A stretch of 64,000 nucleotides of DNA, from NCBI GenBank assembly GCA_023248155.1, contig JAHFFE010000003.1:80042-144041 (forward strand), in the 5' to 3' direction. The translations under genes and the position numbers were made by a program. The notes under the pieces were generated by a model. That model had not been told where the DNA came from. It did no database searches and saw nothing but the letters and a program-made list of their open reading frames with translations. Positions 5,030 to 12,775 of the stretch are shown here, one piece after another; position 1 is the first letter of the stretch; each line of letters starts with the position of its first letter. The stretch comes from Candidatus Omnitrophota bacterium (lineage in GTDB: Bacteria > Omnitrophota > Gorgyraeia > 1-14-0-20-64-10).

Positions 5030-6490
5030 TTGACTGCCCCGAACCTTGAAATATCGGGTGCCAGTATTCACGCCACAGCCGCTCAAAAAAAACGGATTCT
5101 TTTTTTTACCGCCGTTATTTTTCTTCTGATTCTTTTTTCTTCCCGCATCGGGCCGTGGGGTCCGCTTCTTCCTAAAGCCGTTTTATTCTGGTCGGCCCAT
5201 CTGTCGCTGCTGCTGTTGTTCATCTCATTTGCCTGGTATGGACCGGTCTGGGGCGTATTAACGCTGCTGGGAACGCTGGCGATTCTGCTGATGGTAGGGT
5301 TGGCCAGCCGCGACTGGTTGATGTTCGCGCTGCCGTTTCAGGCCGCTCTGTTGGGAGCCATTGCCTACTGGGGCGTTGAGCAGCATCGGAAACCATACCA
5401 GGAAACATCGGTGGCTCTGGAGAAGCAGTTGCAGGAAGTCAACAGTTTGCAAAGTGATCTGGCGCATCTGGAAGAATTACACCGGGGATCGGTTCAGCGG
5501 TTGAGCCGCTATCAGCATTTGCGCCGGATTGCCAACGCACTGAACCTGACGCTCGATACGGAAGCGCTTCTGGAAGTCATCGTGCAGTCGAGCAGTGAAC
5601 TGGTCAAAAACGCCGATCATGTGCTGCTCTATTTGGCCGACGACAAGGGGCTGGAGCTGCGTAAAGTCTGGCGGCGCGCCGGAACGCTGACGATTAAAGC
5701 CAAGCGCGGCGATGCGCTGGATCAGTGGGTGATGCGCCACGCACAGCCGCTGCTGGCCGAAGAATTGCGCCACGATTTTCGTTTTCCGGAAATTACGCCG
5801 GAACTGCTGGAACGGCCCTGCGGAGCGGTGCTGGCGGTTCCTCTGGTGAGTGAACACCGTTTTTTGGGCGTGCTGCGGCTGGAATCAGTGCAGGAACGGG
5901 GGCTTTTCTCGGATGACTTGCGGCTGATCCGAATTTTGGGTGACCTGGCGTCATTGAGTATTGAGAATGGCACGCTGTACGAACGGATGGCCCAGCTGGC
6001 GATGACGGATGACCTGACCGGCTTGATGGTTCGCGAGCAGTTCCTGAAGCAGTTCAAGCAGGAAATTCTCAACAGCCAGAAGACCCAAAAACCGTTTGCT
6101 GTCCTGTTGATCGATATGGACCATTTCAAAAGCTACAATGACCGGTTCGGCCACTCGGCCGGCGATAAACTGCTGAAACAGATCGCCCGTATTCTGAATA
6201 ATTTCCGAAGGCCCGGCGACGCGGCCGGCCGCTACGGCGGAGAGGAATTCGTTTCGTTGTTCTGCCAGACCGACCGCGATGAAGCAATCAAGCGGGCAGA
6301 GAACATCCGCGAGCGGATCGCTTCGACGCCGATTGAACTGCGCCGAGAAGTGGCGCAGGTCAGTGTTTCGATCGGCGTTGCGTTTTATCCCGAGGATGGC
6401 ACCGACCCGATGGTGCTGCTCGGGGCGGCGGACAAGCGGCTGTATCAAGCCAAAGCGCAGGGAAGGAATCGCGTATGCCATTCCGGATAA
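5030..6490 (+). CDS. Membrane-anchored GAF-GGDEF diguanylate cyclase
   Basis: N-terminal hydrophobic helices, a coiled-coil, a GAF-like segment and a GGDEF domain. The active site is RYGGEEF and an upstream RxxD I-site (RPGD) is present. The TTG start is uncertain. Confidence 0.8.
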   Translation: MTAPNLEISGASIHATAAQKKRILFFTAVIFLLILFSSRIGPWGPLLPKAVLFWSAHLSLLLLFISFAWYGPVWGVLTLLGTLAILLMVGLASRDWLMFALPFQAALLGAIAYWGVEQHRKPYQETSVALEKQLQEVNSLQSDLAHLEELHRGSVQRLSRYQHLRRIANALNLTLDTEALLEVIVQSSSELVKNADHVLLYLADDKGLELRKVWRRAGTLTIKAKRGDALDQWVMRHAQPLLAEELRHDFRFPEITPELLERPCGAVLAVPLVSEHRFLGVLRLESVQERGLFSDDLRLIRILGDLASLSIENGTLYERMAQLAMTDDLTGLMVREQFLKQFKQEILNSQKTQKPFAVLLIDMDHFKSYNDRFGHSAGDKLLKQIARILNNFRRPGDAAGRYGGEEFVSLFCQTDRDEAIKRAENIRERIASTPIELRREVAQVSVSIGVAFYPEDGTDPMVLLGAADKRLYQAKAQGRNRVCHSG

Positions 6491-7695
6491 CCCGCTACTG
6501 GCTGCTGGTGCTGGTCATCGGGCTTGCGATCAAAACAATTTTTATTCCGGTGCAGTTCATCGGCGTCTGCGTTGACTCGCTGGTGCTGGCCATCGTCATT
6601 ATTGGTTTAATCTATTCGATGAGCCTTGCGCAGTGGCTGGCAGTCGCGATGGCCGGCATTTCTATTTTTCGCGTGATCGAATCGGGGTATCCGGCCTGGA
6701 AACTGGCCGGCCCCTGGACCATCGCTATCGCGCTGATCTTTTTACTGCGCGTAAAAGACCGGCAGATCGCCCTCGTGCTGGATCGCGTCAAAACACAGGA
6801 CCAGGTATCAGTCCGCGAAGCGCTGACTTTCCTGACCGAGCACCGCAAGCAGCTGCGCGCCTCGATTACCGAGAAAGATGAGTTAATTCAGGAAATCAGC
6901 CAATTGTATCAGCTCTCGAAAGAATTTTTGGGAACGCTCGCTCCGGAAGACGCGCTGCGGCTGACGTCCGATTCGCTGGCCCGCCACGTTCCGTCGCTCA
7001 ATGAAACCGACCGGGCCGCCGCTATTGAAAAAATCAGAGCATTGGTGAATCAGGATAAGGTTTCCGTTGAGGCGATTATTCAAATGGTTCCGATGGCCGG
7101 GACCAATTTGCCGGTGCGCGAGCGGTGGGGTATCGTAGCCGGGCAGCTGGCGCTGGGACTGCAGCGCGCTTCCCTTTACCGCCAGGTCCAGGAATCGGCC
7201 ACGCATGACGGGCTCACGAAACTGCTGGTGCGCCGGCACTTTCTGGAACGGCTGACCGAAGAAGTCGGGCGGGCTGCCCGCCGCAGCATGGCGCTTTCGT
7301 TTTTAATGATCGACCTCGACTATTTCAAGCGGATCAACGATACCTACGGACATTTAGTCGGCGATGTAGTTTTGAAGGAAATTGCCGGGTTGATTCACGG
7401 ATCGGTCCGCGAAATGGATTTGGTCGGCCGCTATGGCGGGGAAGAGTTTGCCGTGATCCTGCCGGAAGCCGATCCGGTACTGGCGGTGCAGATTGCCGAC
7501 CGTATCCGATTAATGGTGGAAACCTCCCCGATTCGGGCTTATGATGAAGAGATTCGCGTGACGGTCTCCGTGGGTGTTTCGTCTTATCCGTCGAGCGCTT
7601 CCAGTGTGGAAGAGTTAATTGAGCAGGCGGATCAGGCGATGTACCGTGCCAAAACCGGAGGCCGTAACAAAACCAGCGTGGCATGGGAACCTTAA
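6475..7695 (+). CDS. Membrane-anchored GGDEF diguanylate cyclase (paralog of upstream gene)
   Basis: N-terminal TM helices, a coiled-coil/GAF-like region, a GGDEF domain with RYGGEEF and an REMD I-site. It overlaps the preceding gene by 16 nt. Confidence 0.8.
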   Translation: MPFRITRYWLLVLVIGLAIKTIFIPVQFIGVCVDSLVLAIVIIGLIYSMSLAQWLAVAMAGISIFRVIESGYPAWKLAGPWTIAIALIFLLRVKDRQIALVLDRVKTQDQVSVREALTFLTEHRKQLRASITEKDELIQEISQLYQLSKEFLGTLAPEDALRLTSDSLARHVPSLNETDRAAAIEKIRALVNQDKVSVEAIIQMVPMAGTNLPVRERWGIVAGQLALGLQRASLYRQVQESATHDGLTKLLVRRHFLERLTEEVGRAARRSMALSFLMIDLDYFKRINDTYGHLVGDVVLKEIAGLIHGSVREMDLVGRYGGEEFAVILPEADPVLAVQIADRIRLMVETSPIRAYDEEIRVTVSVGVSSYPSSASSVEELIEQADQAMYRAKTGGRNKTSVAWEP

Positions 7696-9992
7696 ACCTT
7701 AAAACAATCCAATCATTTCTGATGTTGATTCTTTTTCTGGCCAGCCCGATACCGGCGCTGGCGCTTGAAAAAGAACGAGAGCCGGTTATCGTCAAGGCCG
7801 ACCAGGTTGATTACATCGACAGCGCCAAAAAAGTAATCGCGACCGGCCATGTCGAAGCGGTTTACAAAGATATGAAGGTCACCTGCGATGAAGCGACAAT
7901 CTACACGGAAACCAAAGACGCTTATCTGAAAGGCCGCGTCCGCCTGGTACAGATCGACGGCTTGCTCAAGGGCGGAGAGATTTTGTACAACTTTGAAACG
8001 CAAAAGGGAACCATTCTCGACTCCGAGGTGGAAGCCGGGCCCTGGCGCGCGTCCGGCGCCCGCGCAGAAAAAATTTCGAGCGACAGCGTTTTAAATCAGG
8101 ACGGTTACCTGACCAGCTGCGATTTTGAAGATCCGCATACGAAGGTCCGCGCCAAAACAATCCAGGTTTATCTGGGCGACAAGGTTGTTTTAAAGAACGC
8201 GGTGATCTATGTGGGGCATATGCCGCTAATCTATCTGCCGTCCTACACGCATCTGCTCGATGACAAGCGTCCGCGCGTAACGATTACCCCCGGAAATAAA
8301 AAGGACTGGGGCCTGTTCCTGCTGACCTCGTGGCGAATCTACTTTAATGAAAATCTGCAGGGCCGGCTGCACATCGACTACCGCGAACGGCGCGACCTGG
8401 CGACCGGACTGGATTTAAAATACCGGCTGCCGGTCGGCGGCAAAGGCGTTTTTCGCGAATATTACATGAATGAACGGCTTTTTTCGCAGAGCCACCAGTG
8501 GGATCGGCTGATTGATCCTGATAAAAGCAAGCCGACGACGGAAAAAGAACGGTTTCGCGTGCAGGTGCGCCACGTCTGGGATCTCGACGATTTTACGAAA
8601 GCAACGGTGGAATACAACCGCGCGAAAGACCCCACCTTCATTCATGATTATTTTGAGCAGGAATACGATGAAAATACCGCTTCACCGCTGAGTTATTTTC
8701 AGGTCATCCGGACTTCAACCTGGTACGGACTCACTTTTTTAATGAACAAACGAACGAACCGGTTCGATTCGGTGACCGAACAGCTGCCGTTTGTCCGCCT
8801 GGACTTGAGGCCGCTGAAGCTGGACTGGCTGCCGACACTCGACTGGTTTAAACCGTTTCGGCCGGGAATGAGTTCCGGCTACAAGAATCCATCCGGCTGG
8901 TTCTACCAGTCGGCCTACAGCTTCGAGCGGTCAAATGCGGCAAAACCGCTGCTGGGGACCGAGGCGGGGCTGACCACGCTGGACACCACGCAGGAACTGT
9001 TCTACCCGATGCGCGTTTTTAAGAGTGTGAATCTGCGCCCGTTTTTCCAGTTCCGGGAAACCGCGTTTTCTCAGACGCTCAATGACACCGGCGCGAAGAC
9101 GCGGCAGGCGTTCACCAGCGGTTTTGATATGAATACGAAATTCTTCCGCGTTTTTCCATGGGATATTACCGGATACGGCCTCGATATTCACCGCATACGG
9201 CATGTGCTGACGCCGAATTTGCGTTATGAGTACCGGTCCAACCCGACGATCACGCCGAACGAACTGATCCGGTCGGATGGATTCGGAAAAAGCAACATTG
9301 TTACGCCGGGCCTGGAACAAAAACTTCAGACGAAACGGCAGGTCGGTACTCGCAGCAGTACCGTTGATCTGGCGCGGCTGCTGACCTCGATGCCGTTTGA
9401 CATCGAAGGGTTGAACGGCAGCGGATCGGAATGGGATCCTCTGCGTATTGACCTGGAAACGCTGCCGTATCCCTGGCTTCGTTTTGAGACCGATGCCGAT
9501 CTTGACCCGCACATTGGGCAGTGGACCGCCATCAATTTTGATATCGTCGCCCATCCGGTTTTTGAAAATGCATGGAAGGGAACTACCATCGGAGAAACAG
9601 TGAATCAAGAAACCGGCGAAATCAAAGAATTCCCATGGTCGGTGGGCGCTGGATGGCGCTATCAGCGCGAGATCAGCACGCAGCTGACGCTGGAAACCGC
9701 TTTTGACCTAAACAAGAAATGGCGCATCGGCATCTATAATATTTTTGATTTGAAGCGGTTTGAAACCGAGACGCGGGACGGTTCCAACCGCCTCGTCAAG
9801 CAAGTTAACAACTTTTCGGAGATTGAATACCGCCTCCGGCGCGATCTGCACGAATGGTGGGCCGAGCTGGTCTACAGCCACCGCCGCCAGGGCGGCGACA
9901 GCTTCTTGTTATTGTTCCGCTTAAAAGATGCGCCCGAACTTCCGTTCTCGCTTCAGCGCAGCTACCACCAGCCCAAAACACGCCGGAATTAA
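7683..9992 (+). CDS. lptD: LPS-assembly outer membrane protein LptD (OstA)
   Basis: Signal peptide, an OstA-like N-terminal domain (VIVKADQVDYIDSAKKVIATGHVEAVYKDMKVTCDEATIY…) and a long C-terminal beta-barrel region. 769 aa. Confidence 0.85.
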   Translation: MGTLNLKTIQSFLMLILFLASPIPALALEKEREPVIVKADQVDYIDSAKKVIATGHVEAVYKDMKVTCDEATIYTETKDAYLKGRVRLVQIDGLLKGGEILYNFETQKGTILDSEVEAGPWRASGARAEKISSDSVLNQDGYLTSCDFEDPHTKVRAKTIQVYLGDKVVLKNAVIYVGHMPLIYLPSYTHLLDDKRPRVTITPGNKKDWGLFLLTSWRIYFNENLQGRLHIDYRERRDLATGLDLKYRLPVGGKGVFREYYMNERLFSQSHQWDRLIDPDKSKPTTEKERFRVQVRHVWDLDDFTKATVEYNRAKDPTFIHDYFEQEYDENTASPLSYFQVIRTSTWYGLTFLMNKRTNRFDSVTEQLPFVRLDLRPLKLDWLPTLDWFKPFRPGMSSGYKNPSGWFYQSAYSFERSNAAKPLLGTEAGLTTLDTTQELFYPMRVFKSVNLRPFFQFRETAFSQTLNDTGAKTRQAFTSGFDMNTKFFRVFPWDITGYGLDIHRIRHVLTPNLRYEYRSNPTITPNELIRSDGFGKSNIVTPGLEQKLQTKRQVGTRSSTVDLARLLTSMPFDIEGLNGSGSEWDPLRIDLETLPYPWLRFETDADLDPHIGQWTAINFDIVAHPVFENAWKGTTIGETVNQETGEIKEFPWSVGAGWRYQREISTQLTLETAFDLNKKWRIGIYNIFDLKRFETETRDGSNRLVKQVNNFSEIEYRLRRDLHEWWAELVYSHRRQGGDSFLLLFRLKDAPELPFSLQRSYHQPKTRRN

Positions 9993-10001
9993 GCCTCCCA
10001 A

Positions 10002-10009
10002 AGCCCCCT
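10002..10009. repeat. Left copy of 8-bp direct repeat AGCCCCCT (putative target-site duplication)
   Basis: An identical 8-mer lies at 12768-12775, immediately outside the terminal inverted repeats of the AT-rich insertion. Confidence 0.6.
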
Positions 10010-10036
10010 GGTAGTGGGTCAGTTTGAATCAACAAG
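10010..10036 (+). repeat. Left terminal inverted repeat (IRL) of the element
   Basis: See the alignment in the mobile_element entry. Confidence 0.65.
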
Positions 10037-10139
10037 AACTATCAAACTACATCAAATTATAGCAAGATATGGCCAATTGGTATAAAAAGTAGTACAAAGT
10101 GCCATAGCAGATGCTATACTTACTCTGTGGGCTTCTACA

Positions 10140-10388
10140 ATGTCAATTAAAACCATCGAATCTCAAGTAAAACACCAATCTATACTTTTGGCAAAAGAAC
10201 TGCCAAACCTCATTGCTTCTTCTTTGATGGTTGGCAAGTTTATTGCTTTCTTTAATGGTCAAACAGTCATTAAAGACACTCACGAAGAATGTTTTAAAGA
10301 AGCTGAAAAGTATTTCGGAAGCAGTGGCTTTGTTATTTCCGAAGTTACAGTGAAGAAGCTAATGGTTTCTTCGCTTGTAAAGTTTTAA
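10140..10388 (+). CDS. Small hypothetical protein (82 aa), possibly DUF5678-like, translationally coupled to the downstream protease
   Basis: The stop TAA is directly followed by the ATG of the next ORF. The segment VGKFIAFFNGQTVIKDTHEECFKEAEKYFG resembles, from memory, small partner proteins found next to clan-AA proteases. Not verifiable here. Confidence 0.4.
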   Translation: MSIKTIESQVKHQSILLAKELPNLIASSLMVGKFIAFFNGQTVIKDTHEECFKEAEKYFGSSGFVISEVTVKKLMVSSLVKF

Positions 10389-10757
10389 ATGCTGGCTGCT
10401 CGTACCCCGGATGGTCTCTATACTTTCCCGTTAACAATCGCATTTAAAGGCCCTATTAAAAAGCTCACAGGACTTGTTGATACCGGAAGCAATATATGTG
10501 TATGCACATATAAAATTCCTACCACTCTTAAAGCTAGAGCGACCAGCTTCGGTCCAATTTCAAGCGCTGTTTCTACTAAGACAGTCCAGGCATTTGGATA
10601 TTCTTTAAATGTCGGATTTGATGGAAAATCTGTGATGACGCATGTATATCGCCTGCCGTTAAATATGCCCGGCATAGACTTTATTCTGGGAATGCCTATC
10701 CTCTCTAAGTGCAATACTACGATAAAAGCTGACTGTATGGAGATCGAGTGGATTTGA
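10389..10757 (+). CDS. Retropepsin-like (clan AA) aspartic protease, single domain
   Basis: Catalytic LVDTGSN (D-T-G-S) motif plus the downstream hydrophobic-hydrophobic-Gly motif GIDFILGMPIL typical of retropepsins. The 122-aa size fits a homodimeric single-domain protease. Confidence 0.65.
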   Translation: MLAARTPDGLYTFPLTIAFKGPIKKLTGLVDTGSNICVCTYKIPTTLKARATSFGPISSAVSTKTVQAFGYSLNVGFDGKSVMTHVYRLPLNMPGIDFILGMPILSKCNTTIKADCMEIEWI

Positions 10758-10780
10758 GGGTTGCTTCGTAGGTATTTCCA

Positions 10781-11029
10781 GTGTATAGTGTGTTTATGCC
10801 TAAGCGGTCAAGTAAGGAAAAAGACGAGAACGAAATAGCCCGCTCTATCCTAGAGCAGGTAACACAGTCCGCGTCAGATCACCCACAAAAAAATCCTGCT
10901 GCTGTAGCACTCGGGCGCCTTGGCGGCCTCAAGGGAGGCAATGCCCGAGCGGCTTCATTGTCCTCTGAAAAACGAAAATCCATTGCCAAGCGTGCTGCCA
11001 AAGCCCGCTGGTCAAAGAATCAAAGATAG
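10781..11029 (+). CDS. Small basic protein with a C-terminal GGLKGG…ARW (KGG-like) motif
   Basis: LGRLGGLKGGNARAASLSSEKRKSIAKRAAKARW is a widespread motif in small proteins of unknown function from phage and mobile contexts. Which of two in-frame ATGs (10781, 10796) is the true start is uncertain. Confidence 0.5.
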   Translation: MYSVFMPKRSSKEKDENEIARSILEQVTQSASDHPQKNPAAVALGRLGGLKGGNARAASLSSEKRKSIAKRAAKARWSKNQR

Positions 11030-11089
11030 AAAAAATCCTTGCACGAATGAATAAATCTATGTATACTGCATTTCGTGGAGGAATACAAA

Positions 11090-11623
11090 ATGGATATGTT
11101 CAAATTGAGGTTAAAAATCGGTCTCAATGAATTCGAGGCCGAAGGTGATCGTGAAATTGTTCTGAAGCAAAAAGAGTGGTGGTTTGAGAAAGTACAAGTA
11201 GCGCCTGCCGTAGTAGTTCCCCTGAAAACTGGTGTGTTTTCTCCTACATCAAAAAAACATTCTTCCGATGACGCACCTGCGGTTCCTTCTGAATTAGATC
11301 GTGTTCTGTCTGTTCAGAAAGGAAAGGTTGTATTGCAGGCAAAATTACCCGGAGACGGAAAAGAGGGCGATATCATTCTGATGATTTTGCTTGGTTATAA
11401 AGAACTTCTGAATGTAGAGCCCGTTTCTGCGGTTGCTCTTGGAAAAAGCCTTCGTCTTTCTGGGGTAGGGATTTCGAGAGCGGATAAATATATTTCCGAA
11501 TTAAATGAAAAGAAGTTTGTTCTAACATCTGGTTTTCGGGTTGGATCGAAACATACGCTCACTATACCCGGAATTGCTAAAGCTAAGGAATCCGTGAGGG
11601 AGATTATGGCTTTACTAGAATAA
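11090..11623 (+). CDS. Hypothetical protein (178 aa)
   Basis: A strong RBS (GGAGGA) lies 7 nt upstream of the ATG at 11090. The six-frame track starts at GTG 11075. No recognisable family. It is followed by a GC-rich hairpin. Confidence 0.5.
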   Translation: MDMFKLRLKIGLNEFEAEGDREIVLKQKEWWFEKVQVAPAVVVPLKTGVFSPTSKKHSSDDAPAVPSELDRVLSVQKGKVVLQAKLPGDGKEGDIILMILLGYKELLNVEPVSAVALGKSLRLSGVGISRADKYISELNEKKFVLTSGFRVGSKHTLTIPGIAKAKESVREIMALLE

Positions 11624-11649
11624 AAAACCGGGGAGTTCTAGCTCCCCGG
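11622..11649 (-). terminator. Intrinsic-terminator-like hairpin oriented for minus-strand transcription
   Basis: A-tract 11622-11627, then stem CCGGGGAG / CTCCCCGG with loop TTCTAG (11628-11649). On the minus strand this reads as a hairpin followed by UUUUUU. On the plus strand no U-tract follows. Confidence 0.45.
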
Positions 11650-11685
11650 CTAAACCTATAACATTGCACCCTGTGGAGGAATACA

Positions 11686-11745
11686 ATGTTCGCCCTTTTA
11701 TGGGCGGTTGGCTTCATTCATATTCTAGCTAGACCGCCACCATAA
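11686..11745 (+). CDS. Possible 19-aa hydrophobic micro-ORF (MFALLWAVGFIHILARPPP)
   Basis: It is preceded by GGAGGA with a 5-nt spacer. The 14-nt stretch GTGGAGGAATACAA is identical to the translation-initiation region of the 11090 ORF. Speculative. Confidence 0.25.
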   Translation: MFALLWAVGFIHILARPPP

Positions 11746-11774
11746 GTCAACGAGTAGCCTTTGGTTACCTCGGT

Positions 11775-11828
11775 AAAAAAATAAAAGGGGATAGCGGATT
11801 TGCTTTTCTACGGCTGACCGCTATCCCC
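11775..11828 (-). terminator. Strong intrinsic-terminator-like hairpin oriented for minus-strand transcription
   Basis: A-tract AAAAAAATAAAA (11775-11786), then an 11-bp perfect stem GGGGATAGCGG / CCGCTATCCCC (11787-11797 / 11818-11828) with a 20-nt loop. On the minus strand it is followed by a U-rich tract. Confidence 0.45.
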
Positions 11829-11889
11829 ACCCCGAGTGTAACTTGATTGAAATTTACCATAGCCGCCTAATCATTTACAAATGTTTTGT

Positions 11890-11918
11890 TTGACAATGCT
11901 TGAGCGGTCAAGTATAAT
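11890..11918 (+). promoter_or_regulatory. Consensus sigma70 promoter for the transposase (TTGACA-17nt-TATAAT), predicted leaderless transcript
   Basis: -35 TTGACA at 11890-11895, an exact 17-nt spacer, -10 TATAAT at 11913-11918. The ATG at 11925 lies 7 nt downstream of the -10, with no Shine-Dalgarno. Confidence 0.6.
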
Positions 11919-11924
11919 ACTAAT

Positions 11925-12752
11925 ATGAACAAGTTAACCACACAAAAACAAACTGCGATTCTTTCCGCTCTCATAGAGGGGAACTCCATTAGGGCTACTT
12001 GCCGAATGACTGGCGTAGCCAAAGGAACCGTTCTGTCTCTCTTAGGGCGTGTAGGGCTGGCGTGCGCCGAGTATCAGAACATAACTCTTAAGAACCTGAA
12101 CTGTAAGCGGATTCAGTGCGACGAAATCTGGGCGTTCTGCTACGCAAAAGAAAAGAATGTGCCTAAGAAGCTACAGGGCAAGTTTGGCTACGGCGATATG
12201 TGGACTTGGACAGCATTGGACGCTGATAGCAAACTGATCGTCTCTTTCCTTGTAGGGAACCGAGACGCTTACACTGGTCGGATATTTATGCAGGACTTGG
12301 CTTCTCGATTATCCAACAAGGTTCAGTTGACTACGGACGGACACAGGGTTTATTTAGAAGCGGTCGAATATGCCTTCGGTGGGGATATTGATTACGCCCA
12401 GATAGTCAAGATTTACGGAACAGAACCCCAACCCCAGAATACACGCTATAGTCCTTCAAAGTGCTTGGGAACTCAGCAGATTAAAATTAACGGGGAACCT
12501 GATCTTCGGCATACCTCTACCAGCTATGTTGAACGGCAGAACCTAACTATGCGGATGAGTATGCGTCGGTTTACTCGGCTGACCAATGCTTTCTCAAAGA
12601 AGGCAGATAATTTGAAGCACGCCGTAGCCCTGCATTTCATGTATTATAACTTCTGCCGGATTCATCAGACCTTGAGGGTTACTCCGGCTATGGAAGCAGG
12701 CGTTACAAACCGAATGTGGGCGTTAGAGGACATTTTACGGCTTGCTAATTGA
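11925..12752 (+). CDS. IS1-family transposase, single-ORF fused InsA(HTH)-InsB(DDE) form
   Basis: The N-terminal HTH ILSALIEGNSIRATCRMTGVAKGTVLSLL aligns with the IS1 InsA helix-turn-helix. The DDE regions QCDEIWAFCYAK, LTTDGHRVY and YVERQNLTMRMSMRRFTRLTNAFSKK…YYNF parallel IS1 InsB ([42 protein letters not shown]…). Confidence 0.85.
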   Translation: MNKLTTQKQTAILSALIEGNSIRATCRMTGVAKGTVLSLLGRVGLACAEYQNITLKNLNCKRIQCDEIWAFCYAKEKNVPKKLQGKFGYGDMWTWTALDADSKLIVSFLVGNRDAYTGRIFMQDLASRLSNKVQLTTDGHRVYLEAVEYAFGGDIDYAQIVKIYGTEPQPQNTRYSPSKCLGTQQIKINGEPDLRHTSTSYVERQNLTMRMSMRRFTRLTNAFSKKADNLKHAVALHFMYYNFCRIHQTLRVTPAMEAGVTNRMWALEDILRLAN

Positions 12753-12767
12753 AATTGAACCACTACC
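12741..12767 (-). repeat. Right terminal inverted repeat (IRR) of the element
   Basis: The reverse complement matches IRL at 22/27 positions. It contains the transposase stop codon. Confidence 0.65.
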
Positions 12768-12775
12768 AGCCCCCT
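12768..12775. repeat. Right copy of 8-bp direct repeat AGCCCCCT (putative target-site duplication)
   Basis: Identical to 10002-10009. IS1-family elements make 8-9-bp duplications. Confidence 0.6.

Follow-up and report, generated by a model that had tools for sequence, protein, structure and literature searches.

What is a pair of small, coupled genes, one of which appears to encode a retropepsin-like aspartic protease, doing inside a bacterial insertion sequence (IS)? The question is raised by a locus in a 64,000-nucleotide stretch of contig JAHFFE010000003.1 from a Candidatus Omnitrophota bacterium. The whole stretch is called the window here, and positions are those of the window unless another locus is named. 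In this study, we examined the two genes, the element that carries them and their relatives in other loci.

The gene pair and its products

The first open reading frame (ORF), at 10140-10388 on the plus strand, runs from an ATG start to a TAA stop and encodes 82 amino acids (aa). The second, at 10389-10757 on the plus strand, encodes 122 aa, and its ATG directly follows the upstream TAA. Read directly, the junction is AAG TTT TAA ATG CTG; the stop abuts the start with a spacer of 0 nt, as a preliminary description of this sequence had stated. No Shine-Dalgarno sequence was present between the stop of the small gene and the start of the protease gene. An abutting stop and start without a Shine-Dalgarno sequence is the layout expected for termination-reinitiation coupling. 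Together with the analyses below, these observations show that the pair is a two-gene operon, in which a DUF5678-like 82-aa protein is translationally coupled to a cytosolic 122-aa retropepsin-like aspartic protease.

The 122-aa protein was compared with profile libraries. Pfam RVP (PF00077) matched residues 23-112 at 24.3 bits (gathering score 20.7; E 4e-5). RVP_2 and Asp_protease_2 gave weaker matches to the window protease, under their Pfam thresholds, and no NCBIfam model matched it. The protein contains the motifs LVDTGSNIC (catalytic D31-T-G-S34) and GIDFILGMPIL (G95-IDFILG), and the latter includes the hydrophobic-hydrophobic-Gly motif (ILG) that retropepsins have in their C-terminal helix region. 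A search of 5.8 billion protein clusters returned only 11 homologues, at 50-66% identity and all without names. In the alignment of 10 full-length homologues, D31, T32, G33, S34, C37, VYRL and G95-IDFILG were invariant. An AlphaFold model built from the homologue alignment was of medium confidence (predicted local distance difference test, pLDDT, 69.8), and its fold matches were retropepsins, namely ApRick and retroviral proteases, with 7-15% sequence identity to retroviral or DDI1-type proteases. No solved structure matched the protease family or the small-protein family by sequence. By hydropathy, no transmembrane segment was found in either protein of the pair, the maximum 19-residue Kyte-Doolittle mean of the protease being 0.95. 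Because of the RVP match, the invariant DTGS and GIDFILG motifs, the retropepsin fold and the absence of a transmembrane segment, the 122-aa protein is a soluble, single-domain retropepsin-like aspartic protease. The preliminary description had called it a single-domain enzyme of this kind on its DTGS and FILGMPIL motifs and had proposed a profile search with aspartic-protease families; the motifs are present, and both the PF00077 match above the gathering score and the fold agree with that call. Retropepsins act as homodimers, and the window protease should work as one too.

The window protease was next set beside known retropepsins. With the retroviral proteases (HIV, EIAV, HTLV, RSV) and the DDI1 domain it shares a score above the RVP threshold, the fold and a size fitting an obligate homodimer. 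In contrast to these, it is a stand-alone prokaryotic gene, with no polyprotein and no UBL or UBA domains. APRc/ApRick of Rickettsia (PMC4140852, PDB 5c9b) and the retropepsin-like osmotic-stress proteases of Pseudomonas aeruginosa (PMC11957051, PDB 9g59) are chromosomal, membrane-anchored or secreted, and have no dedicated small partner gene. Unlike them, the window protease has no signal peptide or transmembrane segment, occurs on mobile elements and is always paired.

The small partner was characterized from the ORF list, family alignments, profile matches, a structural model and a fold match. By itself, the window protein matched nothing in NCBIfam or in Pfam (the latter even at E 10), and a single-sequence search found only the protein itself. 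The genes 5' of the protease homologues encode proteins homologous to it, with 43-60% identity. Across six sequences, L17, G32, A36, G40, T47, H48, C51, F52, A55, G60, F64, V76, S77 and L79 are invariant. A profile of these six found 22 proteins, and the same profile found 75 proteins at E up to 1e-3 among 1.84 billion cluster representatives. Pfam DUF5678 (PF18929) was matched by 11 of 71 profile-retrieved relatives (best E 9.7e-10) and, at E 0.075, by two of the six close homologues; no other family was matched. In the model (pLDDT 75.6), a long helix at the N-terminus leads into a beta-hairpin, a second helix and a strand, after which comes a low-confidence C-terminal tail. In a viral structure library the top match of the model was a Pandoravirus "DUF5678 domain-containing protein" (probability 0.99, TM 0.58, E 0.05). 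On the strength of profile transitivity and the fold match, we consider the window protein a probable divergent member of the DUF5678 superfamily. DUF5678 had been a guess in the preliminary description; it stands at the superfamily level, where the family profile retrieves DUF5678 proteins, but not as a direct Pfam match of the window protein. The C-terminal tail is conserved (...VSxLVKL/F; ...MVSSLVKF in the window), hydrophobic and predicted to be unstructured. The small protein gave no sign of a sensor-type domain, and a literature search found no paper discussing DUF5678.

Other arrangements of the small domain were also seen. Tandem DUF5678-domain duplications occur in P0065 and P0091 (174 and 180 aa); P0065 had no match in plasmids, and none of the long matches to the small-protein profile was a fusion to a protease. 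At L095:1254-2251 (IMGVR_UViG_3300027896_005002, a 416-kb viral contig), a 90-aa DUF5678-like gene without the C-terminal tail lies on the minus strand. After it comes a gene for a 184-aa DEDDh-type exonuclease, and before it, with a 4-nt overlap, one for a 134-aa membrane protein. The L095 sequence is also present in L103 and L113, and it represents a different partnership for the same small DUF5678-like domain.

We then asked whether the two ORFs behave as genes. Between L005 and L010, the sole pair of loci unsaturated at synonymous sites, the small gene had a ratio of nonsynonymous to synonymous substitution rates (dN/dS) of 0.053 and the protease gene one of 0.070. These values point to strong purifying selection on both genes in this comparison. 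Since RVP was matched above its threshold, homologues of both proteins were found and dN/dS was low, the window ORFs are real genes and not chance ORFs.

Carriage of the pair by mobile elements

Both genes lie inside an IS1-family element of 2,758 bp (10010-12767). Its left terminal inverted repeat (IRL), GGTAGTGGGTCAGTTTGAATCAACAAG, is at 10010-10036 on the plus strand, and its right terminal inverted repeat (IRR) is at 12741-12767 on the minus strand, overlapping the 3' end of the transposase gene. They were located by an inverted-repeat search, in which IRL gave a sole match in the window, and by comparison with the termini of relatives. Both are clade-typical in that they begin GGTAGTGGGTCAGTTTGAA, and they extend over 27-29 nt with 83% complementarity. 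Direct reading showed the 8-bp sequence AGCCCCCT at 10002-10009 on the left and again, identically, at 12768-12775 on the right. Two 8-bp stretches at fixed positions would agree in all eight letters by chance only once in 65,536 cases. Because identical 8-bp repeats flank both ends as a target-site duplication, the whole 2,758-bp unit transposed as one piece. The insertion point is 10 bp 3' of the stop codon of an lptD-like gene, and the uninterrupted target site would read ...TAAGCCTCCCAAAGCCCCCTCATTTCC.... The same insertion was found in contigs of three other samples at 99.96-100% identity. G+C content is about 54% in the flanks versus 34-52% across the interval, with 34.5% in the small gene, 42% in the protease gene and 47.5% in the transposase gene.

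The transposase gene (11925-12752, plus strand) encodes a 275-aa IS1-family DDE transposase in a single ORF, as judged from Pfam DDE_Tnp_IS1 (26.2 bits, cut-off 24.1), from the best NCBIfam model, transpos_IS1 (E 2e-16; 60.5 bits, under its cut-off of 100), and from its relatives. Classical IS1 is 768 bp long, has ends of the form GGnnnTG and expresses its transposase from two overlapping ORFs by means of a programmed -1 frameshift. The carrier is like IS1 in its DDE_Tnp_IS1 domain, in its ends, which start GGTAGTG and fit GGnnnTG, and in its 8-bp target duplication. It differs in that its clade is 2.0-3.4 kb long and has conserved and variable passenger ORFs, and in its single unframeshifted transposase ORF; two overlapping ORFs with a -1 frameshift were not present. 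The carrier thus fits a single-ORF IS1 subgroup and not classical IS1. In ISfinder usage, IS elements with passenger genes are called "transporter IS".

Next, the element was compared with 80 related copies in genome contigs (L015-L094). The transposase has more than 555 relatives at 60-70% identity in many phyla. (Acidobacteriota, Thermodesulfobacteriota, Omnitrophota, Planctomycetota, Patescibacteria and Cyanobacteria are among these phyla.) The related elements have termini GGTAGTGGGTCAGTTTGA at both ends and are about 2.0-3.4 kb long, with 8-bp duplications such as AGATATCG in L056 and AAAAATTT in L064. Given that length, the clade routinely carries passenger ORFs. Its members usually run from IRL through about 65 nt, a 77-aa basic protein, a variable middle ORF and the transposase to IRR. 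From IRL to the 77-aa ORF the distance is 64-104 nt in 21 of 28 relatives with both landmarks, versus 786 nt in the window. The pair was found in none of the 80 related copies. Because it fills the difference in slot length and is absent from all 80 relatives, the pair is an extra insertion in a variable slot next to the left end, not a standard part of the IS. The preliminary description had placed the pair on a mobile element as IS cargo. The inverted repeats, the 8-bp duplication and the IS1-family transposase confirm this, with the refinement that the cargo, though genuine, does not belong to the standard element. Three relatives have a slot of more than 1 kb with unrelated cargo, which is an NYN-domain protein in one, OMP decarboxylase in another, and a 248-aa ORF with a weak PIN-like ORF in the third.

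The pair was then read in other loci, about 10 contexts besides the window. The loci read were the window, L004, L005/6, L007, L008, L009, L010/11, L012/13, the P0010 contig and L115. In every one of them the small gene lies directly 5' of the protease gene. The junction is abutting in the window, L008 and L009, overlaps by 4 nt in L005/6, L007, L010/11 and the P0010 contig and by 1 nt in L012/13, and has a gap of 5-6 nt in L004 and L115. The preliminary description had suggested a neighbourhood survey of the homologues, and its coupling and co-occurrence of the two ORFs recur throughout this survey. It had also named two outcomes beforehand that would speak against it, no aspartic-protease profile match and two ORFs that never co-occur elsewhere; neither was the case.

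The neighbours differ from locus to locus. L004, a phage-like contig of 39 kb, encodes NinG, an N6/N4 methyltransferase and DUF559, and its pair is placed after the 3' end of an integrase-like ORF; in L008 the pair comes directly after a phage integrase gene. In L005/6 a HigB toxin gene and a helix-turn-helix (HTH) gene lie 360 bp downstream of the pair. The pair is about 1.5 kb from AbiEii/AbiEi in L010/11, near a faint holin-like ORF in L009 and after a phosphoesterase gene in L012/13. Separately, the proteases of L008 and L011 were considered as decayed pseudogenes. This was rejected; both are intact, and their short calls are gene-caller artefacts.

The most telling locus, L115, came from a search with a degenerate DNA pattern that represents a remote branch of the small-protein family. 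Its pair encodes an 83-aa small protein and a 131-aa protease with DTGS, which matches A2, the profile of the protease family, at E 8e-31. The pair is in a 3,437-bp element (L115:8647-12083) with 40-nt inverted repeats at 8647-8686 and 12044-12083 that are 85% complementary, and with a perfect 8-bp target duplication, GTGGAGGG. Its transposase belongs to the IS1595 family (DDE_Tnp_IS1595, E 9.6e-38, and an IS1595 zinc ribbon). The element also carries a ribbon-helix-helix (RHH)-like 66-aa ORF and a 143-aa ORF. Since this IS1595 element carries a homologous pair, two unrelated IS families, IS1 and IS1595, have captured the same module independently. In both elements the pair sits just inside the transposase-distal end and reads inward.

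We also looked for a third conserved gene, and found that the 182-aa ORF of the window, the 143-aa ORF of L115 and the middle ORFs of L056 and L062 share no significant similarity. This bears on whether the protease may mature a protein of its own element, such as the transposase or the conserved passengers. The retroviral analogy would favour such a role, as would the position of the pair inside two IS elements beside other passenger ORFs. But all 80 related IS copies do without the pair, the transposases of the two elements are unrelated, their middle ORFs are not detectably similar and the other contexts share no partner gene. We therefore regard maturation internal to the element as very improbable.

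The same loci bear on whether the pair is a neutral hitch-hiker, or a housekeeping protease with its chaperone, that was trapped in an IS by accident. Copies in the IS clade do carry unrelated cargo, including the OMP decarboxylase and the NYN-domain protein, and L012 is an ordinary chromosomal setting. An accidental passenger would not be expected to have been captured separately by a second IS family or to recur among mobile elements, toxin-antitoxin genes and Abi genes; nor would one expect of it extreme rarity and patchiness, a G+C content far under that of the host and strong purifying selection. In view of these features, this explanation is improbable.

Further searches for the protease in viral, metagenome, plasmid and phage sequences gave no additional locus. 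No relative was confirmed with the A2 profile in IMG/VR viral contigs or JGI metagenome contigs, and tblastn found no match to the protease in 72,556 plasmids and 50,697 phages.

What the pair may do

A function of the pair in addiction, defence or processing is plausible from its context, namely the two IS families, the integrases, the HigBA and AbiE neighbours and a weak match to PDC-M08B, described below. In E. coli, retroviral protease is toxic to the cells that express it. We propose, as a tentative reading that falls somewhat short of probable, that the two genes form a module akin to toxin-antitoxin systems or one for abortive defence, in which the protease is the effector and the small protein its neutraliser. 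The rarity and patchiness of the family, with only 11 proteases among the 5.8 billion clusters, were counted in its favour. It has been reported that Tn3-family transposons carry toxin-antitoxin pairs as integral passengers (PMC7157771). The present pair resembles type II toxin-antitoxin modules, including these Tn3 passengers, in having two small, co-directional, coupled genes with the smaller one upstream, in its patchy distribution on mobile elements and in its location beside other toxin-antitoxin pairs. It is unlike them in that its small protein has no recognisable DNA-binding domain.

Under the toxin-antitoxin-like reading, the pair would be a self-contained mobile module. The homodimeric protease would act as the effector, harming the cell or an invading phage through protein cleavage, and the co-translated small protein would restrain it. 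The restraint may use the conserved, predicted unstructured C-terminal strand (...VSxLVKL/F). This strand could occupy the substrate cleft as a pseudo-substrate, or it could lie at the terminal beta-sheet and prevent dimerisation. If the small protein were lost or displaced, the protease would be released. Such a module would stabilise the element or reward the host for keeping it, which would account for its uptake by two unrelated IS families and by prophages.

Several results weigh against this reading, some of them from a comparison with PDC-M08 of PADLOC. PDC-M08 is a cassette of two genes, FAM_03167>>FAM_00414, of which RefSeq v209 has 381 instances; it comes from a guilt-by-embedding study (Payne et al. 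2024, bioRxiv 10.1101/2024.01.29.577857). It was proposed as a phage-defence candidate on the ground that its genes are embedded in BREX, DISARM or type I restriction-modification (RM) systems, and no experimental test of it was reported (bioRxiv 10.1101/2024.01.29.577857). We found that the window protease matches the PDC-M08B profile (127 positions) at E 0.0073 over residues 94-120 only, its C-terminal 27, and that seven of 10 protease family members match it weakly, at E 8e-5 to 0.02. The matches are collinear, running from the N-terminus and DTG region to the C-terminal GIDFILG region; in P0006, residues 5-119 correspond to positions 4-124. This collinear likeness to a defence candidate, weak as it is, speaks for the proposed reading. 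PDC-M08A matched neither the window small protein nor its 71 relatives at E up to 1, and in none of the loci read was the pair embedded in a BREX, DISARM or RM system. The likeness thus consists of a two-gene cassette whose B protein is collinear with the protease, and the difference lies in the unmatched A component and the lack of such embedding. Because the small-protein family does not match PDC-M08A, the pair is not a member of PDC-M08, of which it is at best a distant variant. PHROGs gave no match to either protein of the pair, and no literature on PDC-M08 was found beyond its source study.

The remaining adverse results concern the pair itself. The small protein has no recognisable DNA-binding domain, and most type II antitoxins have one. 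The L012 pair adjoins an ordinary phosphoesterase gene. The identity matrices of the two genes correlate with r = 0.70, but with only 0.17 once a single close pair is left out, so that there is no signal of co-variation. In addition, the wider DUF5678-like family also occurs without the protease, in L095 and L096, the latter a solo member that keeps the tail. Because of these members, the conserved tail is not proven to be specific to the protease.

The tail is also central to a different explanation, in which the two genes form a processing pair. Here the small protein would be a dedicated substrate or pro-factor, for example one whose tail is cut off to release or activate something, and the module would be non-toxic. 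Retropepsins classically mature partner polypeptides, and strict pairing, coupling and a conserved, hydrophobic and predicted unstructured tail would all suit such a role. It is less easily reconciled with L096, where a small-protein relative keeps its tail at a locus without a protease, or with the lack of any downstream target or third conserved gene common to the contexts. It also leaves the repeated collection of the pair by IS elements and prophages unexplained. We judge a processing pair unlikely.

The prophage and integrase-proximal positions, the AbiE and HigBA neighbours and the PDC-M08B similarity would likewise fit direct, non-suicidal defence or counter-defence. In that case the protease would cleave an invader protein or, if phage-borne, a host defence protein, and the small protein would serve as adaptor, sensor or activator. 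A parallel exists in the Sulfolobales, where retropepsin-domain proteins of about 100 aa (the Saci_1895 family) are located beside type III CRISPR loci (PMC3973734). Like the window protease, these are small stand-alone prokaryotic retropepsins linked to immunity by genomic context only; they differ in being archaeal and CRISPR-associated with no comparable partner described (PMC3973734). Against a direct role stand the absence of a match in the 50,697 phage genomes or the IMG/VR contigs and the absence of a sensor-type domain in the small protein. Its probability is accordingly low.

A bolder form of the toxin-antitoxin-like reading is that the pair founds a new toxin-antitoxin or abortive-infection class, in which a cytosolic retropepsin toxin would be held inactive by a DUF5678-type C-terminal strand and recruited by at least two IS families and prophages. 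We consider this doubtful. We know of no aspartic-protease toxin family, and our literature search found neither such a family nor a retropepsin together with a toxin-antitoxin system. To our knowledge, the protease effectors in bacterial immunity and toxin-antitoxin biology are serine, cysteine or metallo-enzymes. If the bolder form were true, it would provide the first function for DUF5678 and a prokaryotic, inhibitor-controlled counterpart of retroviral protease toxicity. A stand-alone aspartic effector of the retropepsin type with a dedicated partner would add a new effector class, and would give the first functional handle on DUF5678 and PDC-M08.

The pair is a rare, unannotated variant of kinds already known, with affinities to the retropepsin-like proteases of prokaryotes, to DUF5678 proteins, to mobile modules of two genes and to IS that carry passengers. 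The presence of the same 0.6-kb module inside one end of both IS1 and IS1595 elements bears on how IS acquire and retain passengers, and has a parallel in the toxin-antitoxin pairs of Tn3 transposons. Having been captured independently by two IS families, the pair is a good experimental target. The module is small, with 204 codons in total, and easy to test directly.

Other features of the carrier element

The first passenger ORF conserved in the IS clade follows the pair at 10796-11029 on the plus strand and was defined by tblastn; the listed ORF starts with GTG at 10781. It encodes the 77-aa basic protein (MPKRSSK...KGGNARA...KAAKARW), which had tblastn matches in about 25 of the 80 related loci, in most of them with an ATG about 65 nt from IRL. 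Its motif is KNPAAVALGRLGGLKGG.ARA..LS...R..IA.KAA.ARW, and the C-terminal motif matches PHROG 2384 at E 4.6e-5. The 77-aa protein may bind DNA.

The variable middle position is taken by the 182-aa ORF of the ORF list (11075-11623, plus strand). Only L075 has a relative of it, and no match was found in Pfam, NCBIfam, PADLOC or PHROG. A G+C-rich hairpin lies just after it at 11626-11651; by consensus scan only, it is terminator-like for the minus strand. The same kind of scan gave a perfect sigma-70-type promoter, TTGACA-17 nt-TATAAT, before the transposase gene (11890-11918, plus strand; 12/12 positions).

Between 10775-10814 and 11875-11914 there is a 40-nt direct repeat with 73% identity, which gives the 77-aa ORF, at its 5' end (ATGCCTAAGCGGTCAAGTA), a likeness to the promoter region of the transposase gene (ATGCTTGAGCGGTCAAGTATAAT). 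Motifs like ATGCTTGA(G/C)CG(G/C)TCA occur near the left end of the relatives L064, L071 and L089. The repeat and motif could be a shared regulatory site.

The window element contains no tRNA, and no Rfam family was found in it beyond one chance snoRNA match. In each of the three relatives with more than 1 kb of left-end cargo, a tRNA gene is predicted within the element, where the middle ORF and the transposase enclose it. These genes are at L056:3746-3820, L062:2246-2320 and L042:3837-3927, and comprise two 75-nt tRNA-Ser(ACT) and one tRNA-Leu(CAA). The equivalent spacer of the window, 11624-11924, contains hairpins and no tRNA.

The element was inserted in an intergenic gap between two blocks of genes. 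Upstream (5030-9992) are two GGDEF diguanylate-cyclase genes, one with GAF domains, and the lptD-like outer-membrane gene, which encodes 769 aa. Downstream are a UDP-glucose dehydrogenase-like gene and dTDP-sugar pathway-like genes.

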